In this document: in pieces, positions 4,827 through 59,370 of the stretch | Numbering within the stretch: the stretch's first letter is position 1 | Layout: every line of letters begins with the position of its first letter | Source of the DNA: Dysgonamonadaceae bacterium | GTDB taxonomy: Bacteria; Bacteroidota; Bacteroidia; Bacteroidales; Azobacteroidaceae | Direction of reading: 5' to 3' | Assembly: GCA_031269685.1 (NCBI GenBank) | Contig: JAISYU010000030.1 | Span: forward strand, 729 to 64,728 | Length of the DNA: 64,000 bases | Made by a program: the position numbers and the translations under genes | Notes under the pieces: model-generated | The model's input: the letters and a program-made list of their open reading frames with translations, nothing else | What the model was told of the DNA's origin: nothing | The model's database searches: none

Positions 4827-5828
4827 TTAGTTGAGTAATTTTCTTGCGAGTTCTATTATGGTATCTTTTCCTTTTTGTATGTCACCGGCTTCGAGTTCGG
4901 CGTGAATATCGGGAGATATTCCAAATTCGAGGTGGTTCATTTCGGCGTCAAATAAGGGGCTTGCGGAAAAGCGGACCATCCAGCCGTTAGGGATTTCGGA
5001 ACTGAAAGGGAGACCGCTACCGCCGCCGGTTTGATCGCCTATTATTGTGACGTTCGGAGCGTACCGCATGGCATTGACGAAGTCGTTAGTAGCGCTGAAG
5101 CACCTACGGTTGGTCAGTATTACTACCGGTTTGTAATAGTGTAGATGTTTCGAGGGTTCGGTGTATCGGGGGTATGGTTTGGAGAAGTCGTCGTGATTTT
5201 TGCCGGTCTTGTGTTTGATGTATCCTACGAGGGTTTTTTCTTCTACGAATCGCGATGCTAAAATTTCGACGTTTGAGAGGTATCCACCGCCGTTATTTCT
5301 GACGTCGATTATTATACCTTTACATTTCTCCATTATGCTTAGGATATAGTTTAGCCCCTGTTCGCTGATCGCGGAGGAAAAGTTACCGTAGCGGATGTAC
5401 CCTGTATTATCGTCAAGGATTTTGTACTGTAATCCGCCTGCTATTGCGTAGTCTGTTTGCAGATAATTGTTTATCAGGTCCTGGTCGAAATTTTCGGGGA
5501 AGTCTTCGTACCATTTCCAGTACCGTCCGACGTTGAACGGTGAGGTCAGGTTGACATGCCCGTCTTTTAGTTCCTGCAGCATAAGGTTCAGTAAGTTAAA
5601 TAATTCTTCATCTGTTTTTACAGCGCCTGTCAGTTTTGCATATTCGCGGTGTATTTTGTCCCAGTCGACATTTTTGTAATCGAAAAAGCAGTAATGTTCG
5701 TCAATGATTCTCCATAGTGCCTCGAAGTTTCCCTGCGGGCTGTCGGGAAATTCCTCTATTTTAATGCAGGATGAGTGCAGGATGAGGCAGAGGATTAGCA
5801 GTGCGGTGTATATTCTATTGAAAGACAT
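4827..5828 (-). CDS. S41 family peptidase, probable lipoprotein
   Basis: ATG at 5828 gives MSFNRIYTALLILCLILHSSC (lipobox-like); DGHVNL, IIDVRNNGGG, FSATN and TGGGSG motifs. Confidence 0.85.
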   Translation of the reverse strand: MSFNRIYTALLILCLILHSSCIKIEEFPDSPQGNFEALWRIIDEHYCFFDYKNVDWDKIHREYAKLTGAVKTDEELFNLLNLMLQELKDGHVNLTSPFNVGRYWKWYEDFPENFDQDLINNYLQTDYAIAGGLQYKILDDNTGYIRYGNFSSAISEQGLNYILSIMEKCKGIIIDVRNNGGGYLSNVEILASRFVEEKTLVGYIKHKTGKNHDDFSKPYPRYTEPSKHLHYYKPVVILTNRRCFSATNDFVNAMRYAPNVTIIGDQTGGGSGLPFSSEIPNGWMVRFSASPLFDAEMNHLEFGISPDIHAELEAGDIQKGKDTIIELARKLLN

Positions 5829-6729
5829 GCTGGTATTTGTTAAGTTTTCTCCCCGGCACCATAAGGATATTTTTCGATAAGCCCACATAAAATGTATTAG
5901 TGCGGATCTGCGTTTGAAGGCTGTTTATTTTCGTCTGGTATAGACTGTGGAGGTATCCGAAGCGGAATGTTGTATTTCCGGCGGGAACTTCGATTGTTAT
6001 CATTCCTTTCAGGTTTATGTAATTTTGGGGCGTTGAAAAGTAAATCAGGTTATTATTATCCCCAATACCGATTTCGTAATATGACTGCCCGTATTCGGGA
6101 GAGTACATGATGCCTGTCATGGGAGCGCTTACCTGCAAGGAGAATCTGATTGGGCAAGTTTCTACAGGAATTATCACGCTCGTTATTGCCGACAGGTTAA
6201 TGCCTGCATGAAATTTGCCTGTGACCGGATTATTGGTATTCCTGTTGTTATGAATGAATCCCAGCAGTATTTCCGGCTGTGCACCGAGGTATAAGCGTAG
6301 CCTACGGTAAGGTTTAAACCTGTAAAAGAGTCCGTAATTATACTGTAACATTCCTGCGCGGCTGACAGCGGTTGCTGTACGATTGCCTGCCTGCCGGAAT
6401 GAGATGTCTATCTGCTGTTGCGAGATGACTTTACCTCCGGCAATGGATAGCGTTTTCATCAACTCTGAGGTCAGCGAAAGGTTTATTCCGCCGTACTGTA
6501 ACGGGGAGAGGTAAGTGTCGTATATACTTGAGGTACCGATTCCCGCCATCATTGATTCGTAAGTCAGGCGGGCAGGCGGATCATGAGCGGAGGCGGAAAT
6601 GCTTACTGTAATAAGGAGCAGGCATCTTGTTATCCGTCTTATAATCTTCCCTGTGAGGTCGCTGTGTTTCTCATTTACGTTAATGCGTTTTAGAGTGACC
6701 TCGCTTAGAACACCCAAGGCAGATGTCAT
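5815..6729 (-). CDS. DUF3316-family putative outer-membrane protein
   Basis: DTYLSPLQYGG and YSPEYGQSYYEI motifs; beta-rich; the ATG overlaps the upstream TGA (ATGA at 6726-6729); adjacent to S41 peptidase as in other Bacteroidales. Confidence 0.7.
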   Translation of the reverse strand: MTSALGVLSEVTLKRINVNEKHSDLTGKIIRRITRCLLLITVSISASAHDPPARLTYESMMAGIGTSSIYDTYLSPLQYGGINLSLTSELMKTLSIAGGKVISQQQIDISFRQAGNRTATAVSRAGMLQYNYGLFYRFKPYRRLRLYLGAQPEILLGFIHNNRNTNNPVTGKFHAGINLSAITSVIIPVETCPIRFSLQVSAPMTGIMYSPEYGQSYYEIGIGDNNNLIYFSTPQNYINLKGMITIEVPAGNTTFRFGYLHSLYQTKINSLQTQIRTNTFYVGLSKNILMVPGRKLNKYQHVFQ

Positions 6730-7244
6730 TTTTCTATTATCTTCGATAGAATATCCTTACCGGTAATGGTTATCCATCCGAACAGCAAACCGATGAAACC
6801 GTAAGTCAGTTCTACGATTGCCGCCGTTCCAAAATCCGCCGCAGGGACGTAAGTCATGATGCCGAAGTAGCAGCCGGAAGCGACAAACATGGCTGGAATA
6901 AGGTCTACCCAGGGTACTTTTTCGAGGTACAGTACGAGGAAGACGACGATAAAGACTGCGACCGGTACGGCAAAGAATGAGGTGAGCGCTGCAACAGAGT
7001 TGGCAATGAGGATTATCCCTATGGAAAAACCAATGCCTACCGCATAACCGATCATCGCCCGTATGCCACCCTTCAACGTGCATCCCGAAAAGAAATAGAC
7101 CGCCCACGCTACGAAAGCTATGTAAGTAAAACCCTTGTCTGCGCCTATGGGCATGTGTGACTTGAGTATCTGGTCGATACAAACGATGATAAACGCCAGA
7201 AACGCGGTCCACGCAGAACCGACTGCAAATGTTACTTTCTTCAT
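6726..7244 (-). CDS. DUF1097-like small membrane protein
   Basis: 172 aa, about five hydrophobic segments, FVAWAVYFFSG motif. Confidence 0.6.
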   Translation of the reverse strand: MKKVTFAVGSAWTAFLAFIIVCIDQILKSHMPIGADKGFTYIAFVAWAVYFFSGCTLKGGIRAMIGYAVGIGFSIGIILIANSVAALTSFFAVPVAVFIVVFLVLYLEKVPWVDLIPAMFVASGCYFGIMTYVPAADFGTAAIVELTYGFIGLLFGWITITGKDILSKIIEK

Positions 7245-7272: not shown

Positions 7273-8758
7273 TTATTTTCTTGATTGTTCCAATCCATAT
7301 CCTTTACGTCTATCCTCAATCTTCAAGAGGTATGCGACGAAAATCGCTAATATCCCGAAAAGAGCGAAGATAAGCATTGGTAATGTGTAGTCGTACGTTG
7401 CGGCGCCTTTATCGTCCGCTCCGGTTACGCACCACCTGTTTAACACCCAACCGATAAGGTAAGGCACTCCCGCAAGCCCTATGTTTTGTACCCAAAAGAT
7501 GAGTGCGTATGCTGTGCCGAGCTGTTTTTCGGGGATTATCTTCGGTACGGAGGGCCACATAGCCGATGGGACAAGCGAAAACGCTATTCCTAACAGTATG
7601 ACAACGATTATCGCAAACCATACATAATTCAAGAAAGGCGCGGCAAACAGCAAATGTACAACGACAAGCAGTAATGACCCGATAAGCATTAATGTCGCCC
7701 CGTGCCCCCTCTTATCATATATCCAACCGAAAAATGGAGTCATCAGCATGTTACCGAATGGCAGCAGGCTGGGTACTATTCCCGCGAATTCCTTTTCCAC
7801 TCCGTATTTGTTGACCATTAAAGATGCTGCAAACTTCAAGAACGGAAACACTGCCGAGTAAAAAAGAACACACAGTATCGCTATCAGCCAAAAGCCTTTG
7901 TTTGCAAATACTACGCCTACATCGCGCATCTTAAATTCATCTTCTTTGGTTTTTACCGAAACCGTTGCGTCTTCGCGGTCAAGTTTTCTGTCCATCACAC
8001 AGTAAACAAGGAATACCAGCAGACCGATTGTCAACATGGCAAGCGAAAAGAGAAAAGGCGATGACATTGAGAAATTACGGGCAATGATCGGACTGAATGC
8101 CATTGCAAAGGCTGTTCCGAGTCTTGCTATTGCTACCTGGATACCCATTGCAAGGGCTAGTTCACCGGTCTTTCCAAACCATTTAACAATGATCTTGGAA
8201 ACAGTGATTCCCGTTATTTCCGAACCCATGGCAAAGACCGCAAAACCACAGCAGGCAACCAGAATCTGTGTGCGTATCCCGAAAATACTCCCTGCGTCGG
8301 GCGATATATACTCAATCGCATAGTACTTTATCGCACATCCTATTACCATCAGCGCTGCCGACATCGTACCGGTAAACCGGACCCCCATCTTATCAAGTAT
8401 GATACCTCCGAAAAACAACATTAGCAGTATCACGTTCAGCCAGCCGTAAGCGCTGTTGAAGAGACCGAATTCATCGCTCGACCACGAGAGTCGTTGCGTG
8501 TCTGCATACTTTGTCGTTGTATGCCTGCATACATTGTCGTTGCGTGCCTGCATACATTGTCGTTGTATGCCCGCATACATTGTCGTTGCATGCCTGCATA
8601 CATTGCAAAGGTTTCTCCCCGAGCATGTCCATCAAAGGCGACATTGCGTCGTTGAGGAAGTATCCCCACATCATGGTGAAGGATACTATTAATAACGCTA
8701 TCCAGCGCATCTTCCCGTTATTTCTTACATTTCCCTTTACAATACCTTGTATTTTCAT
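7273..8758 (-). pseudogene. MFS transporter interrupted and frameshifted by a 115-bp tandem array (456 aa if the array is removed)
   Basis: The N-terminus (MKIQG...RWIALLIVSFTMMWGYFLNDAMSPLMDMLGEKPL, from 8758) and the body (LSWSSDEFGLFNSAYG...GGIILDKMGVRF, to 7273) are in different frames. Deleting 8491-8605 joins them in frame (1486-115=1371 nt). Confidence 0.85.
8491..8605. repeat. 5 x 23-bp tandem array, consensus TCGTTGTATGCCTGCATACATTG
   Basis: TCGTTG recurs at 8491, 8514, 8537, 8560 and 8583; the consensus unit contains the dyad TGTATGC-N2-GCATACA. Confidence 0.97.
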
Positions 8759-8875: not shown

Positions 8876-8906
8876 CAAAGGTATGATATTTTTTCGTAAA
8901 AACAAA
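8876..8906 (-). promoter_or_regulatory. Bacteroidetes primary-sigma promoter for the MFS/DUF1097/DUF3316/S41 run
   Basis: Minus strand TTTG(8906-8903)-N19-TACCTTTG(8883-8876). Confidence 0.7.
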
Positions 8907-18462: not shown

Positions 18463-18996
18463 TTAACTAATATTTGCGTAAATTCCGCTACAAATTATAT
18501 CTTTGCCTCTGCAAGTTGCGTAAATTCCGCTACAAATTATATCTTTGCCTCTACAAGTTACGTAAATTCCGCTACAAATTATATCTTTGCCTCTACAATT
18601 TGCGTAAATTCCGCTACAAATTATATCTTTGCCTCTACAAGTTGCGTAGATACCTCTGCACTTTGCAGAGATGCCGCTGCACTTTGCAGAGATGCCGCTG
18701 CATTTTGCAGAGATGCCGCTGCGTTTTGCAGAGATGCCGCTGTACTTTGCAGAGATGCCGCTGTACTTTGCAGAGATGCCGCTGCATTTTGCAGAGATGC
18801 CGCTGCATTTTGCAGAGATGCCGCTGCATTTTGCAGAGATGCCGCTGCGTTTTGCAGTGGAATGGATACAACTTGTGTGGACTCCGCTGCATTTTGCAGT
18901 GATGCCGCTGCGTTTTACGGTGATGCATCTATAAAATGCTGTGATACAACTGAAATCTGTATCTGTATCCTTATAATATGTGGAGTTTACTCTCAT
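18463..18996 (-). CDS. Putative Gly/Cys heptad-repeat peptide (upstream ORF spanning the array), 177 aa
   Basis: ATG 8 nt after a consensus -7 element; (SGISAKC)n followed by (RGKDIICSGIYATC)n; stop 36 nt before the 18426 gene. Expression unproven. Confidence 0.45.
   Translation of the reverse strand: MRVNSTYYKDTDTDFSCITAFYRCITVKRSGITAKCSGVHTSCIHSTAKRSGISAKCSGISAKCSGISAKCSGISAKYSGISAKYSGISAKRSGISAKCSGISAKCSGISAKCRGIYATCRGKDIICSGIYANCRGKDIICSGIYVTCRGKDIICSGIYATCRGKDIICSGIYANIS
18467..18928. repeat. Compound array in one 21-bp phase: 4 x 42-bp units (18474-18641), then 9 near-identical (18656-18844) and 4 degenerate (18845-18928) 21-bp units
   Basis: 42-mer TTGCGTAAATTCCGCTACAAATTATATCTTTGCCTCT(G/A)CAAG; 21-mer CTGCA(C/T)TTTGCAGAGATGCCG with dyad CTGCA-N3-TGCAG; the first half of the 42-mer matches the 21-mer at about 14/21. 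Confidence 0.95.
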
Positions 18997-24258: not shown

Positions 24259-27200
24259 TTAATTCCTTGCACCACGTTGCGAAGGTCTGCTCTCAAACTG
24301 CTTGAACTGTGCGTAATACCTGTCCAACAGTTGATCAATCTCCGCAAACCTGGTAGCGTCGGTCTTTTCATAGTAGCCTGCAAGGTTGCTCAGTATGTAA
24401 ATGCTTTCATGTACGTCCCGTAATATCGATGCATAATGCTTAACGCTAAGCCGTGAGTACCACTCCAGGTCGCCAAGCGTGGACGCAGTCAGTGTATCGT
24501 ACACCTGCTTCGCCTTCGCAGTATCGCCCGCAAGGAGGTAGGTCTTCGCTATCTCTCCCGTTGACTGGTAGTCGTAGGGCACGTTGAAGTCAGGGATTGA
24601 CCTTAGCGCGTAATCCATAGCCTTAACCGCATCTTCTTTTCTGCCGTCCGCAACTAACCGCTGCCCTAACGTGCCGAACAACGAGCGGAACGTACGCGCT
24701 AACCGGCATGTGTTCTCATCTACATACAACCCCTCACGCTCAAGGTTGCCCCAACGGTACTTATTCATTAGATTGTCGTACAGTGTATCCGTATCGTACC
24801 GCAAGTGCTCGCTATCAGTCCGGTAAGGCACTACCCGGTACGCAACACCGTCCTGTCGGAAGTAGCCGCTGAGACGCACGTGCTCGTCAGGTGAAACGGT
24901 AATAGCATAATACACAGGTCGCTTCCAGTCTCTGTTGTTGCTCAGAATGTCCAGCACCATCATCTCCTGCTTCCCAAGACGATTCTTAGCCTTCGCCAAT
25001 ACGTTACCTTTCGCATCCTTATGTTCACCAAGGTAGATATACATTGTGTCAACTATCTCATTAGCGTACGCAGGCTTGACCGTCCCCGACGCAACTGCCG
25101 CACGGCGATCCACAGGCAAAGCAAGCGCGTATGTAGGGATGTTATCTATTTCTATGGAGTAATTAGGGATGCGCTTAGTCCTTGGATCGTTCGACTTGAC
25201 ACGGTTCAACGCACGTGACACATCCCACGCTTCGTCGGTATGAGGAAACAACCAACCAACATCGTGCTTACCATTAATGTACTCCGAACGTGTCCACGAA
25301 ATAGGCAACGCATCAGACTCATACGACTGACGCTTCATCTGGTCTATGTACCAGTCCGTTTGCAGGTACGAAAGGTTGCAAACACGAACATCAGTCCTAT
25401 AACCTTCAACCTCTTGCGCATACCACAGCGGGAACGTATCGTTGTCTCCCATAGTAAATATAATGGCGTCACGTTCACAGGTAGCAAGGTAGTTACGCCC
25501 GAAATCACGCGTAGTGTACCTGTTAGAACGATCGTGGTCGTCCCATGTCTGTGATGCCATCTGAAGCGGGACAAGCAAACAAAGAACACTACCAACAAGC
25601 GCACCTGTAACACCTTTGAGTTTAATATGCCTTTCTATGAGGCGGATAATGTATGCCGTACCTATACCAATCCATATACAAAAAGCATAGAACGACCCCG
25701 CATAAGCGTAGTCACGTTCGCGTGGCTGATATGGTGTCTGGTTAAGGTAGACAACGATCGCTAAGCCAGTCATAAAGAACAGTAGAAACGTAACCCAAAA
25801 CCCTTCAATGCCCTTCCTTCCTTTGGATACCTGAAAGGCAATACCAAGCAGTCCAAGTATCAACGGTAACATGTAATATACATTGTGTCCTTTATTCTTC
25901 ACTATGAAGTCAGGTAGATTATCCTGCGGACCGGCAAGGAAATGATCAATAAAGCGTATACCGGTAATCCAGTTCCCATTCGAGACCTCACCGTGACCCT
26001 GAATATCGTTCTGTCGACCTGAGAAGTTCCACATAAAGTACCGGAAATACATAAAGTTAACTTGATAGTTGAGGAAGAAACGTATGTTCTCAATGAATGT
26101 GGGTTTCATTACTACCTTCGACTCACCGTTAGGATCCGTCACTACCACACGCTGACCCTTTATGTTTGCCCATGACTTATAAGCCGCTACGTGCGCACGT
26201 TCCATACTGTACATACGTGGAAACAACATGTTCAATTCGTCTCTGTAGATCGATTTCTCCTTACGCATCGACTCGAAATAACGGTCTTTCTCCTCGTCCT
26301 GATTCTCTTTAGATACCCTCGTCCATACCGGACCAAGATCCTTCCTGGCATATTCGTAAGAGTTTCCCTTTACTACATATTTTGGTTCGGAGACGTAAGT
26401 CTGTCCGTACAATAAAGGAGTATCGCCGTACTGTTCCCGCGAAAGGTAAGTCCTCAGCGTAAAGATATCCTTAGGTGAATTCTCATCCATCGGTGCATTA
26501 GCCGAAGAGCGTATCATTATCAGTGCGTAAGACGAATACCCTATTGTAATTACCAGCAGTCCTGTCAGTATGGCGTTAAATGCAACAGGATTAAACTTCT
26601 TTACAGAGAATAGATATACGCCAAGCCCTATTAATATTATAATTCCTAACCATGGGCTATTACCAAGAAACGGGATACCGAGCAGTGCGACGGCAAGCAT
26701 GAAAGCAATCTTCACCCTCAATACCGATTTCCCGCTTAACGTTTCCAGGATTCCACAAATCAACGCTCCAGCGACAAGGACAGTGTACAATATGACGCCT
26801 GAGTTATAAGGCAAGCCGAATGAATTGACACACAACAGTTCAAACCAGCCTGCAACTTTCACTACACCTTGAATTATACCGAACAGCAAGACCGCCACTA
26901 TCAGGAACGACACTAAGAGCGCAACTAACGAGCCTTTCAGGTTGGCATTAGGATTCTTTTTGAAATAATACACAAGTACGATAGCCGGTATACAAAGTAG
27001 ATTCAGGAGGTGTACGGCAATAGATATTCCCATCAGGTAAGCTATCAGGATTAGCCACCTGTCTGCGTGAGGTTCATCTGCGACATCTTCCCATTTCAGG
27101 ATGAGCCATACAACAACGGCGGTCATCAGCGACGAAAAGGCGTAAACCTCACCCTCGACCGCTGAAAACCAGAAAGTATCCGAGAATGTGTAGGCGAGCG

Positions 27201-30291: not shown

Positions 30292-30550
30292 GAACCAAGT
30301 CCGAACCAACTCCGTTGCAAGTCCGTTGCAAGTCCGAACCAACTCCGTTGCAAGTCCGAACCAACTCCGTTGCAAGTCCGAACCAACTCCGTTGCAACTC
30401 CGAACCAACTCCGTTGCAACTCCGAACCAACTCCGTTGCAACTCCGAACCAAGTCCGTTACAACTCCGAACAAAATCCGTTGCAACTCCGAACCAACTCC
30501 GAACCAACTCCGTTGCAACTCCGAACAAAATCCGAACAAAATCCGAACAA
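30292..30550. repeat. 11-bp two-monomer array (A=GAACCAACTCC, B=GTTGCAACTCC), 23 full units plus a partial unit
   Basis: Order read directly: AABBABABABABABABABAABAA, then GAACAA running into the ATG at 30551. Confidence 0.95.
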
Positions 30551-32596
30551 ATGAAGATAATAACAGTAATAATCTTGTCACTAAACTTACTGCAAATTCA
30601 CGCACAGGAAAATCCCAAAAATACCGAATGGATGGATTTCCTCGAAGAACTCTATATGACGGAAGACGCAGACCCTGCAAGTATCGAACAACTGTATGAC
30701 GATCTGTCATACATCAGTGAACGCCCCTTTAACTTGAGAACCGTTACCCGGAAGGAACTCGAAAGATTACCATTCCTTTCTTCCATACAAATCGAAAACC
30801 TGCTTTACTATGTTTACAGGTTTGATCTGGTCGATATCTACGAATTAAAGAACGTGAAAAGCCTGGACTTTGTGACAATTAACCTTCTTTTGCCGTTTGT
30901 ATACGTCGGCGAGGCAAAAAAGACACCGCTCAACTTGAAAAATACGTTGCCTCACGTAAAACATGACGTCATTCTGCGCACCGGATACACTCTGCAACAA
31001 AAAGCCGGATACAAAAAATCTACCGAAGAAGATAAAGCCGCCAGACCAAACAAATACTACCTTGGCAACCCTTATTATATGTCTCTTCGATATGGTTTTA
31101 GGACGAATGATGATATTCAGTTTGGTTTTGCAGGAGAGAAAGATGCCGGCGAATCTTTCTGGAATAAGCACCACAAAGGGTTTGACCACTACACCTTCAA
31201 CCTCAACCTGAAAAACCGCGGGATCCTCGAAGACCTTCATATTGGCGATTACCGTCTGTCTTTTGGGCAGGGGCTTGCTATGAACACAAATTTTATAATG
31301 GGGAAAACTACCTTTATTACTAATATCGCTCAAATGAATGAAGGAATAAAACGACATGCCACAACCGACGAAAATAATTACTTCAGTGGTGCAGCTGCAA
31401 GCCTGAAAATTAATAATTTACAGTTTACCTGCTTCGGATCACACAGATTGCACGACGCCAATGCCGACAGTTTAACTGTTTTCTCCTTCAAAAACGACGG
31501 CTATAACCGCACACTGAACGATATGGAGAAACGCAATTCCGCTACGGTCAATACGGGTGGCGGGCATATACGCTGGAGAACGGAATCGGTGAATATCGGC
31601 TTAACTGCGGTCTATTATTCATTTGCAGGGAAGCAGTTAAATCCCAAGCGTCAACCGTACAATATCTTTTATCTACGGGCTAAAGACTTTTTCAATACGG
31701 GAATTAATTACGGTATGCATGGAAAATGGTTTGCGTTCCAGGGAGAGACTGCTATTGACAGGAACAGTAAATTTGCGACAGTAAATAACTTGTTGCTTAA
31801 TCCGTCTTCGCTGTTTGACCTGGCTATCTCTTATAGATCCTATGCCCGTGACTATAATGCCTTTTACGCACGCGCATTTTCAGAATCTTCGACGGTAAGT
31901 AATGAGAGTGGGTTTTACTTTGGTTGGAAGATTTACCTGTCTACTTGTTGGGAATTGTCGGGCTACATTGATTGTTTCAAATTTCCATGGTTTAAGTATG
32001 GTATTGATTCGCCTTCGGAAGGTAGTGAGAGTGTACAGAAGATGACTTTCAAGCCAAACGATAAATGGGAATTGCAGGCAAGGCACAAGTATAAGAGTAA
32101 AAGCAAAAACAAAAACAAAGATTACAATGAAGGCAGTGAGACGTTTGTCAAGCCGTATTATCAGGATCAATGGCAGTTCAGGATTACCACTGACCTGAAT
32201 AACTGTCTACAGTTGAAAACTCGGGTGGATTACAGCCGATATACGTTTCTTGAAATATTAGAGAAGGGCTGGTTTATTAGTGAAACGCTTTCCTGGTCAC
32301 CGAAATATAAATTCCACATTGACGCCTGTGCGGGATATTACGACACCGGGGGATATAATACCCGCATAAGTGTTTATGAGAAAAGCCTTCTCAATGCTTT
32401 TTCGTTCCCAAGTTTTTACGGAGAAGGATTTCGCATGTACATGGTTGTCAGGTGGAATGTTTCGATGCGGGCAAGTGTTTGTATGAAGATCGGTAATACC
32501 CGTTATTTTGACCGTACGACGATTAGTTCCGATCTTGAGGCGATTGAGGGCAGGGATAAAACGGATATAAGTTGTTTATTAAAGTGCAATTTTTAG
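30551..32596 (+). CDS. Secreted helix-hairpin-helix (ComEA-like) domain protein of Bacteroidetes, probable C-terminal beta-barrel
   Basis: Signal peptide MKIITVIILSLNLLQIHAQE; PFNLRTVTRKELERLPFLS HhH; GEKDAGE and GDYRLSFGQGL motifs; C-terminal aromatic residue. Confidence 0.8.
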   Translation: MKIITVIILSLNLLQIHAQENPKNTEWMDFLEELYMTEDADPASIEQLYDDLSYISERPFNLRTVTRKELERLPFLSSIQIENLLYYVYRFDLVDIYELKNVKSLDFVTINLLLPFVYVGEAKKTPLNLKNTLPHVKHDVILRTGYTLQQKAGYKKSTEEDKAARPNKYYLGNPYYMSLRYGFRTNDDIQFGFAGEKDAGESFWNKHHKGFDHYTFNLNLKNRGILEDLHIGDYRLSFGQGLAMNTNFIMGKTTFITNIAQMNEGIKRHATTDENNYFSGAAASLKINNLQFTCFGSHRLHDANADSLTVFSFKNDGYNRTLNDMEKRNSATVNTGGGHIRWRTESVNIGLTAVYYSFAGKQLNPKRQPYNIFYLRAKDFFNTGINYGMHGKWFAFQGETAIDRNSKFATVNNLLLNPSSLFDLAISYRSYARDYNAFYARAFSESSTVSNESGFYFGWKIYLSTCWELSGYIDCFKFPWFKYGIDSPSEGSESVQKMTFKPNDKWELQARHKYKSKSKNKNKDYNEGSETFVKPYYQDQWQFRITTDLNNCLQLKTRVDYSRYTFLEILEKGWFISETLSWSPKYKFHIDACAGYYDTGGYNTRISVYEKSLLNAFSFPSFYGEGFRMYMVVRWNVSMRASVCMKIGNTRYFDRTTISSDLEAIEGRDKTDISCLLKCNF

Positions 32597-34491: not shown

Positions 34492-35077
34492 GGCTTCAAA
34501 TTCTCTGAATTGGGGATCAAATTCTCTGAATTGGGGACCAAATTCTCCAAATTGGGGACCAGATTCTCCAAATTGGGGATCAAATTCTCTGAATTGGGGA
34601 TCAAATTCTCCGAATTGGGGATCAAATTCTCCAAATTGGGGATCAAATTCTCCAAGAATGGCGTCAATTTCTCCGAGAATGGCGTCAATTTCTCCAAGAA
34701 TGGCGTCAATTTCTCCAAGAATGGCGTCAATTTCTCCAAGAATGGCGTCAATTTTTCCAAGAATGGCGTCAATTTCTCCGAGAATGGCGTCAATTTCTCC
34801 AAGAATGGCGTCAATTTCTCCAAGAATGGCGTCAATTTCTCCGAAACTGTCGACAAATTCTCTGAAACTGTCGACAAATTCTCTGAAACTGTCGACAAAT
34901 TCCACGAAACTGTCGACAAATTCTTCCAGACGGGAGACAAATTCTCCGAAACGGGAGACAAATTCTCCGAAACGGGAGACAAATTCTTCCAGACGGGAGA
35001 CAAATTCTTCCAGACGGGAGACAAATTCTCCGAAACGGGAGACAAATTCTCCGAAACGGGAGACGATTTTTCCAACT
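34490..35077. repeat. 28 x 21-bp array in four consecutive sequence blocks (8+9+4+7 units)
   Basis: Blocks TGGGGATCAAATTCTCCAAAT, ATGGCGTCAATTTCTCCAAGA, CTGTCGACAAATTCTCTGAAA and CGGGAGACAAATTCTCCGAAA share a CAA(A/T)TTCTC core; units counted from the translated frame. Confidence 0.95.
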
Positions 35078-47983: not shown

Positions 47984-48370
47984 ATGAATACAAAAGTAAT
48001 ATATAGCATAGGGAAGAGGACGCAGGATACGGAAAAATATCCGACAGAATATTACATTTCCACATACCTGAAAAGAAATATGGAAGGGACTCCTTGCGTG
48101 ACTAAAGGGACTCCTTGCGTGACTAAAGGGACTCCTTGCGTGACCGAAGGAACTCCTTGCGTGACTAAAGGAACTCCTTGCGTGACCGAAGGAACTCCTT
48201 GCGTGACGGAAGGAACTCCTTGCGTGACGGAAGGAACTCCTTGCGCGACGGAAGGAACTCCTTGCGTGACTAAAGGGACTCCTTGCGTGACCGAAGGAAC
48301 TCCTTGCGTGACTAAAGGGACTCCTTGCGCGACGGAAGGAACTCCTTTACACCGGAAAATCTGTTGGTAA
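47984..48370 (+). CDS. Putative Gly/Cys heptad-repeat peptide (upstream ORF), 128 aa
   Basis: ATG 8 nt after the -7 element; 12 x (E/K)GTPC(V/A)T; stops 92 nt before the 48463 gene. Expression unproven. Confidence 0.45.
   Translation: MNTKVIYSIGKRTQDTEKYPTEYYISTYLKRNMEGTPCVTKGTPCVTKGTPCVTEGTPCVTKGTPCVTEGTPCVTEGTPCVTEGTPCATEGTPCVTKGTPCVTEGTPCVTKGTPCATEGTPLHRKICW
48083..48347. repeat. 12.6 x 21-bp array, consensus (G/A)AAGG(A/G)ACTCCTTGCG(T/C)GAC(T/C/G)
   Basis: Read directly; the consensus unit contains the dyad AAGGA-N2-TCCTT. Confidence 0.97.
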
Positions 48371-55840: not shown

Positions 55841-55973
55841 CACTGTAAGCCGGCACACAACGACAATGTATGCTGGCTTACAACGACAATGTATGCTGGC
55901 ATGCAACGACAATGTATGCTGGCTTACAACGACAATGTATGCTGGCATGCAACGACACTGCAAGCCGGCACAC
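55841..55973. repeat. About 5.8 x 23-bp array, same family as 8491-8605 in the opposite orientation
   Basis: Units CAATGTATGCTGGC(TTA/ATG)CAACGA alternate; terminal units are CACTG(T/C)AAGCCGGCACAC. Confidence 0.95.
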
Positions 55974-55975
55974 TG

Positions 55976-56012
55976 TAAAAAAACAGAGGGGGACGCATCG
56001 CTGCATCCCCCT
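55976..56012 (-). terminator. Intrinsic terminator of the cyd operon
   Basis: Minus strand GGGGGATGCA-GCGA-TGCGTCCCCC (GNRA loop) followed by CTGTTTTTTT. Confidence 0.8.
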
Positions 56013-59004: not shown

Positions 59005-59092
59005 AACTATTATATAACTTTACTTATCTTTTGTATATTCATTAAATGATGCAAGAAATTTTCTTATACGTATAGGGGAATTTCCCACACGC

Positions 59093-59260
59093 GGGAACAA
59101 ACTGTACACGCGCAGGAACAAATCGTACACGCGCAGGAACAAACTGTACACGCGCGGGAACAAACTGTACACACGCGGGAGCAAACTGTACACGCGCAGG
59201 AACAAACCATACACGCGCGGGAATAAACTGTACACGCACGGGAACAAACTGTACACGCGC
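59093..59260. repeat. 8 x 21-bp array, consensus (G/A)GGAACAAACTGTACACGCGC, with degenerate flanks
   Basis: Units start at 59093, 59114, 59135, 59156, 59177, 59198, 59219 and 59240. Confidence 0.95.
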
Positions 59261-59370
59261 AGAAGCAAACTTCCCATAGGTGCGGGAGAAATTCTTATTG
59301 ATATGTGAAACGTTTATATACACAATGAATTATTTTTATTACCTTTGCAACTCATTTTATATATCATAAT

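Follow-up and report, generated by a model that had tools for sequence, protein, structure and literature searches.

A 23-bp minisatellite array out of frame within a conserved MFS transporter gene of a Bacteroidales genome

How does a conserved transporter gene come to be divided between two reading frames by a tandem repeat, and is the repeat a device that turns the gene ON and OFF or the trace of an event that broke it? In the window, by which we mean the whole 64,000-nt stretch of DNA analysed here, five head-to-tail 23-bp units (8491-8605) lie within a gene for an MFS_1 transporter on the minus strand, and the 5' part of the gene (8758..8471) and its body (8580..7273) are in different frames. 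The original prediction, made from the letters of the sequence, offered both answers, a candidate ON/OFF switch set by the number of repeats and a very recent inactivating insertion. We find that the array belongs to a dispersed family of repeats that are otherwise intergenic, that the orthologues of the gene are array-free, and that the gene itself shows no decay. These observations favor the second answer, and we consider it probable (roughly 0.7) that a BrickBuilt-like, ‘naked’ minisatellite recently inserted into the MFS gene and inactivated it.

The array and its host gene

The body ORF matches Pfam MFS_1 (PF07690) with E=4.6e-33 over body residues 29-370; the motif A GGIILDKMGVR, located between TM2 and TM3, is kept in all orthologues, and the profile match extends over both six-helix halves. 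None of the NCBIfam equivalogs compared with the MFS protein reached its cut-off, and no substrate could be assigned. The gene lies in the order asd-MFS-DUF1097-DUF3316-S41, which is also found in a sister species (P0001, on two independent contigs), and the ORF list and Pfam matches agree with the prediction that the last three genes follow closely downstream (Table 1). Based on the length of the sister-species gene, which encodes 314-335 aa, the S41 gene probably starts further downstream than 5888. Upstream of the MFS gene, at the position proposed for its promoter, there is a promoter motif of the Bacteroidetes type, and 15 such motifs occur in the window compared to 2.4 expected.

Table 1. 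Coordinates of the MFS locus, its neighbours and related repeat arrays (window positions unless a contig is given).
Feature	Position	Strand	Basis or context
S41 peptidase gene (Tricorn_C1 + Peptidase_S41)	4827..5888	-	Pfam
DUF3316 gene, 4-nt overlap with the DUF1097 stop	5815..6729	-	Pfam PF11777; synteny
DUF1097 membrane-protein gene, 28 nt downstream of the MFS stop	6726..7244	-	Pfam PF06496; same gene order in sister species
MFS gene body: TM2-TM12, motif A GGIILDKMGVR, single intact frame	7273..8488	-	Pfam MFS_1 E=4.6e-33; 89% identity to intact orthologues, no stops
TGA stop closing the frameshifted 95-aa N-terminal product, 18 nt past the array	8471..8473	-	ORF list, sequence
Net 118-nt insertion: G + five 23-bp units (8605..8491) + CT; junction ambiguous by 1 nt (one T)	8489..8606	-	TRF, unit matches, orthologous DNA of L032, L067/L068, L069/L070
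Two in-array ATG codons (8580, 8553), in frame with the gene body	8551..8580	-	ORF 8580..7273 (435 aa); 426-aa product P0002
5' part of MFS gene: start codon, TM1, start of TM1-TM2 loop (...DMLGEKP + TT of Phe codon)	8607..8758	-	ORF 8758..8471 (95 aa); aligned to N-termini of 12 intact orthologues; hydrophobic residues 17-38
Bacteroidetes-type promoter motif (-33 TTTG, 19-nt spacer, -7 TAccTTTG; TTTG-N19-TAccTTTG)	8876..8906	-	Pattern search; 118 nt upstream of ATG 8758
Second array of the same 23-bp family: four canonical units (55864-55955) + two degenerate flanking units	55841..55978	+	Intergenic, between terminator-like hairpins of convergent sdhB-like and cydB-like genes
Five further window arrays, unrelated units	18474-18926 (42/21 bp), 30292-30551 (22), 34497-35064 (21, 27 copies), 48083-48347 (21), 59086-59271 (21)		
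CCGACGC-NN-GCGTCGG family in G000	C8 (~24794-24840), C22 (14612-14670), C44 (10431-10498), C99 (20056-20119), C111 (7475-7537)		

Tandem Repeats Finder (TRF) reports the array at 8490-8605 with a period of 23 bp, 5.0 copies, 88% matches and 0% indels, and this result and the ORF list together bear out the prediction that five 23-bp units separate two gene parts that are out of frame. The array unit, CAATGTATGCNGGCATACAACGA, is made up of a 7+2+7 palindrome (TGTATGC-NN-GCATACA, a 16-bp dyad) and a 7-nt spacer, ACGACAA. All five units are distinct, with 1-5 pairwise mismatches and about 5 private substitutions in the 115 nt, and no exact repeat within the array exceeds 21 nt, the lowest such maximum in the 17-array family described below. 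TRF also detects a superperiod of 46 bp, at 94%, and units 2-3 resemble units 4-5, a pattern of internal duplication. The array is free of stop codons, as had been noted for its coding strand, and this holds in all six frames.

The orthologues allow the insertion to be placed. MFS orthologues are widespread and 450-470 aa in length, and intact, array-free orthologues are found in G012 (89% identity, with a 453-aa open frame), as P0001 (89% identity, on two independent contigs) and as P0003 (82% identity). The site encodes EKP-F-x-W in all 12 aligned orthologues, with exactly two codons between Pro and Trp: the codons are CCG TTC CTG TGG in G012, CCG TTT TCA TGG in P0001 and CCC TTT GTA TGG in P0003, and the window reads CCT TTG, the 115-nt array, and CTC TCG TGG. 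At the level of DNA, the empty site of G012 consists of AAACCGTTC joined to CTGTGGTCG, and the empty sites of L067/L068 and L069/L070 read CCGTTTTCATGG and CCCTTTGTATGG, respectively; compared to the site DNA of each of these three, the window has an additional 118 nt. Removal of the 115-bp array had been predicted to restore the gene. Such a removal does keep the frame, but it is not an exact excision, as it leaves one codon beyond any orthologue, and the net gain amounts to 118 nt. Judged by hydropathy, the insert follows residue 50-51 and separates hydrophobic segments at residues 17-38 and 59-91, which is just past the first TM helix as originally described. The insertion has no target duplication of more than 1 nt, no inverted ends, and neither leader nor tail. 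The MFS locus is in this respect a natural experiment, in which a conserved coding target makes the insertion junction readable to the base.

We also considered the left junction, GAAACCTTTGCA (window 8604-8615, minus strand), which is one mismatch from GAGACCTTTGCA, the terminal inverted repeat (TIR) of the IS5 family and BrickBuilt. We rejected the junction as a TIR of the IS5 type: conserved native MFS codons account for 9 of its 12 nt, and the other arrays are without such a word. Genome-wide, IS5-type TIR words occur at chance level, and the only one associated with an array is this junction. The likeness is probably a coincidence.

The net insert has a length of 3+23k nt, and computation confirmed the expectation that only k=0, 3 or 6 units preserve the frame; the in-frame net inserts are 72 nt (3 units) and 141 nt (6 units). 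With five units, translation from the native start would proceed through the array and end at a stop codon 18 nt beyond it, because 118 = 3n+1, yielding a 95-aa product with only TM1, and the remaining eleven helices would be left without a start codon. The body frame is open from 8631, and the array contributes two ATG codons to it, including the one at 8580 that had been pointed out previously and that opens ORF 8580..7273. The public gene call, a 426-aa ‘MFS’ protein (P0002, window 7273-8553), starts at the second in-array ATG. This start inside a repeat is an artefact that conceals the disruption of the gene, and it serves as a warning for annotation.

Apart from the insert, the MFS gene shows no decay. 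With the insert set aside, the protein departs from columns that are otherwise invariant by 2 private changes, both conservative, compared to 0-5 in intact orthologues, and Tajima-type relative-rate counts are 15 versus 17 and 12 versus 16. Codon changes on the branch leading to the window are 5 non-synonymous to 42 synonymous, similar to the ratios of 2:15 and 3:22 in the intact sisters, in agreement with the view that both gene halves are undecayed. This means that the gene was disrupted recently or that selection still acts on it.

The comparison of orthologues for alleles with three or six units, which had been suggested as a check, found every examined orthologue to be array-free. No array or large loop insert is present at the site among the orthologues of 47 relatives or among the best 120 of 8000 database candidates. 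In a search of 5.8 billion proteins, the only match above 89% identity among the matches listed was the window's own product, P0002; the names of the nearest proteins point to a Dysgonomonadaceae bacterium. When the neighbouring DUF1097 and asd proteins were looked up by exact match to find conspecific alleles, there was no match, and a 23-mer common to the window and the sister species had no match in metagenomes.

A dispersed family of 23-bp arrays

The original prediction missed that the unit recurs at 55864-55955 in the same window (Table 1), a recurrence that changes the meaning of the array in the MFS gene. The window contains 9 unit matches, compared to 0 in 100 shuffles. We scanned the whole assembly, a metagenome-assembled genome of 2.23 Mb in 125 contigs that is 93% complete, and found 73 units at ≤3 mismatches, which form 17 arrays of 3-14 units on 16 contigs. 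Based on ORF context, the other 16 arrays are intergenic and occupy the spaces that separate long ORFs. Convergent 3'-3' gaps hold about seven of these 16, one of them following the groEL terminator, and further arrays of the family lie upstream of ackA, argG and pgi. Long ORFs that seem to cross the intergenic arrays are artefacts of the stop-free array sequence. Two of the five units in the MFS gene are identical to units of the C41 array, and the best match outside the MFS array is 33 nt in length.

The 23-bp unit family is absent from 60 relatives. In metagenome contigs, the unit pattern was matched by 16 isolated chance hits and by no array; similarly, it had one chance hit only among GTDB species representatives. 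The genes that flank the second window array lie on separate contigs in G012, and a different, 21-bp array follows sdhB there.

A common leader, tail or TIR was not found in the flanks of the 17 arrays. No match to a Y1/RAYT transposase (PF01797) was obtained in the 93%-complete genome, in which the positive controls were found, and the assembly also gave no DDE_Tnp_1 transposase. Because IS elements are often missing from metagenome-assembled genomes, these two results are weak negative evidence. We rejected a REP/RAYT origin of the array, no Y1 transposase having been found, as well as an origin as a MITE mobilised by IS5, with no DDE_Tnp_1 found and no TIRs at the arrays.

Additional repeat types lie next to some arrays of the family. 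Several of these arrays adjoin, with no change of the 23-bp register, a second 23-bp family whose palindrome is CCGACGC-NN-GCGTCGG (Table 1), and other kinds of brick, among them CACGGAAAGCCGGCATTCAATGA and CATTGGATGCCAAGGCTCTGTGA, are repeatedly found as flanks that are common to the C18, C121, C24 and C8 arrays.

Genome-wide, there are 562 non-redundant tandem arrays, which amount to 68 kb (3%), with dominant periods of 21/42/63/84 and 23 bp. For approximately 196 of these arrays the period is 20-24 bp, and they can be sorted into approximately 79 sequence families; the 20-24-bp units are enriched for internal palindromes, with 76 having stems of ≥5 bp compared to approximately 21 expected. 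ORFs ‘span’ 26 of the approximately 196 arrays, a count that is ambiguous, as 21-bp periods create spurious open frames. Five of the window's arrays have units unrelated to the 23-bp family (Table 1). The 42-bp unit at window 18473-18631 holds a complete Bacteroidetes promoter motif, TTTG-N21-TAtcTTTG, and this array has at least 2 identical promoter-like sites, 126 bp apart.

Relatives carry arrays of their own with unrelated unit sequences. In the sister genome G012, a 21-bp palindromic unit, ACCATTTCCGTTGTTACGGAA, is present in 9 copies in the asd-MFS spacer (L032 2969-3163), and another, AACGCATTTACGTAAATATGA, is present in 8 copies downstream of sdhB (L064 2658-2822). Between G012 and the genome of the window, array positions are reused and unit sequences are unrelated.

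A probable recent insertion and its alternatives

We propose that the array in the MFS gene is one copy of this species-specific, dispersed and normally intergenic minisatellite family, and that an array piece comprising five units and 3 nt (+118 nt) would have landed in the codons of the TM1-TM2 loop. With eleven helices lacking a start codon, the allele is therefore most likely null, as judged from the reading frames, and there may be an effect on the downstream DUF1097, DUF3316 and S41 genes through polarity. Outside the insert, the gene cannot be told apart from intact orthologues, and the event therefore appears to be recent; any death of the gene would date to roughly the final few per cent of the branch between this species and its nearest sequenced relatives. 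The gene is absent from 6 of 29 high-quality relatives, which argues that it is dispensable and is consistent with its loss. The array arrived ‘naked’, as units and 3 nt with no inverted ends and no target duplication, which suggests that arrays can spread by copying of array DNA via template switching or gap repair and not by classical transposition. We infer that the MFS copy was derived from another array by such a route, and not by the action of a transposase.

Several observations weigh against a recent insertion. The complete absence of decay is also expected of a gene that is still functional. Moreover, the private substitutions and the 46-bp duplication hint that the array has some age or that its unit number changed in place, and a 3-unit, in-frame predecessor is conceivable; the substitutions and the likeness of units 2-3 to units 4-5 may, however, have been inherited from the donor array as well as having arisen by change in place. 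Finally, neither of the two transposase families was found, subject to the frequent loss of IS elements from metagenome-assembled genomes.

If the array were instead a contingency locus, slipped-strand mispairing would alter the unit number, such that alleles with 3 or 6 units, which add 24 or 47 residues to the loop, would be ON and all others OFF; such switching would be heritable, reversible and perhaps polar on the downstream genes. We regard this as unlikely. In favor of a switch, the 23-bp unit is not divisible by 3, the array is stop-free in every frame and inserts of 72 and 141 nt are in frame, and the insert falls within an extracytoplasmic loop, the TM1-TM2 loop, whose length varies slightly among orthologues (it is 4 residues longer in P0063). 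Neither the promoter nor either half of the gene is damaged, and purifying selection has acted along the whole branch. That unit number changes over time is indicated by the range of 3-14 units in arrays of the family and by the 46-bp (2-unit) pattern in the MFS array; likewise, the unit number of BrickBuilt differs between strains of Porphyromonas gingivalis (PMC4596501). On the other side, the five units differ at 1-5 positions (88% match) and have a longest repeat of 21 nt, making this array the least homogeneous of its family. Known translational phase-variation tracts consist of identical units of 1-9 nt. In addition, the intergenic location of the other 16 arrays argues that the family is not a device of coding regions, and the searches described above found no array or large loop insert at this site in other orthologues. 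The argument for a switch is one of arithmetic and of an intact gene, and a reversible switch is not supported. More unlikely still is the specific form in which 3- and 6-unit alleles would encode a working transporter with a Cys-rich loop insert of 24 or 47 residues, all other unit numbers being OFF. If true, one copy of a dispersed intergenic minisatellite would have been domesticated as a translational ON/OFF switch, the first of its kind, and this in a phylum that is otherwise known for phase variation by invertible promoters.

The absence of decay would also be expected if the gene works as two polypeptides, a 95-aa fragment with TM1 and a fragment with TM2-TM12 translated from an in-array ATG (8580 or 8553), which would assemble in the membrane like split lactose permease. 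Indeed, complementation is reportedly possible with LacY that is split in loops and expressed as contiguous fragments, in work attributed to Bibi and Kaback and to Zen et al., and the in-frame ATG codons of the array, together with the frame that is open from 8631, would provide for the second fragment. However, these ATG codons lie about 100 nt upstream of the stop of the N-terminal fragment, and simple coupling of termination to reinitiation is therefore inapplicable. They are also in a G+C-rich stretch with strong predicted folding (RNA z-score -3.3), whereas the native start has an A-rich leader. We consider a split transporter very unlikely.

Least likely among the readings that we weighed is an assembly artefact or the consensus of a minor variant, in which the dominant allele would be array-free or in frame and the 5-unit path would be a mis-count or a rare strain variant. 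The genome is a metagenome-assembled genome in 125 contigs with no second assembly of the species for a cross-check, and tandem repeats are a classic cause of errors in copy number. Against this, all units of the array are distinguishable, such that any k-mer longer than its longest exact repeat of 21 nt defines a unique path, and more homogeneous arrays, with exact repeats of 29-87 nt, were assembled in the same genome. Furthermore, both insertion junctions must exist in real reads, because the ancestral MFS site and the array have no k-mer in common. A mis-count of units by the assembler is unlikely. We rejected programmed +1 frameshifting, for which no supporting signal was found.

Comparison with known repeat systems

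In simple-sequence contingency loci, such as the tetranucleotide tracts in genes of Haemophilus or Neisseria, slipped-strand mispairing changes the number of units. The MFS array resembles these loci as a coding tandem repeat near the 5' end of a gene, with a unit that is not a multiple of three and a frame that is set by unit number, but it differs in that its units are 23 bp and not 1-9 bp, are non-identical, and are a copy from an intergenic dispersed family. REP and BIME sequences, which are associated with RAYT transposases, are short palindromic dispersed units that are mostly extragenic and often found at the 3' ends of genes. The present units differ from these in being strictly head-to-tail direct repeats with a fixed 23-bp step, in a genome in which no Y1/RAYT was found. 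Rickettsia palindromic elements (RPE) can insert inside coding sequences, where they are in frame and tolerated; in contrast, the MFS insertion shifts the frame.

Dispersed 21-23-bp palindromic minisatellites are numerous in Bacteroidales and little understood, and our literature search yielded no description of this class of repeats beyond BrickBuilt, its sole described example. The MFS locus adds an out-of-frame copy caught in a conserved gene, with a junction that is exact to the base and an apparently ‘naked’ movement of array DNA. If MFS function has been lost, as the reading frames suggest, copies of such minisatellites are able to disrupt genes. The near-exclusively intergenic location of the repeats then probably reflects selection and not targeting.

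BrickBuilt of P. gingivalis consists of 23-nt repeats without spacers, in 19 dispersed copies of species-specific sequence (Klein et al. 2015; PMC4596501). Its arrays form long stem-loops, vary in unit number between strains and are always intergenic, and it was named a MITE for its flanking inverted repeats (PMC4596501). The family described here is similar in several respects: both occur in Bacteroidales as spacer-less tandem 23-nt units of species-specific sequence, both comprise approximately 17-19 dispersed, imperfect arrays per genome of approximately 2.3 Mb, and in both the arrays are mostly located beside terminators or promoters. The two differ in that the units are unrelated in sequence (compared to the BrickBuilt unit AGACCATAGTATCCTCTCATATG, the best of 46 rotations and strands has 11/23 mismatches, which is the chance level, with 22% of shuffles doing equally well), in that the present arrays lack a shared leader or tail as well as inverted ends of the IS5 kind, with no DDE_Tnp_1 found, and in that the MFS copy lies inside a conserved gene. 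The present family is BrickBuilt-like in behaviour and does not belong to BrickBuilt itself.
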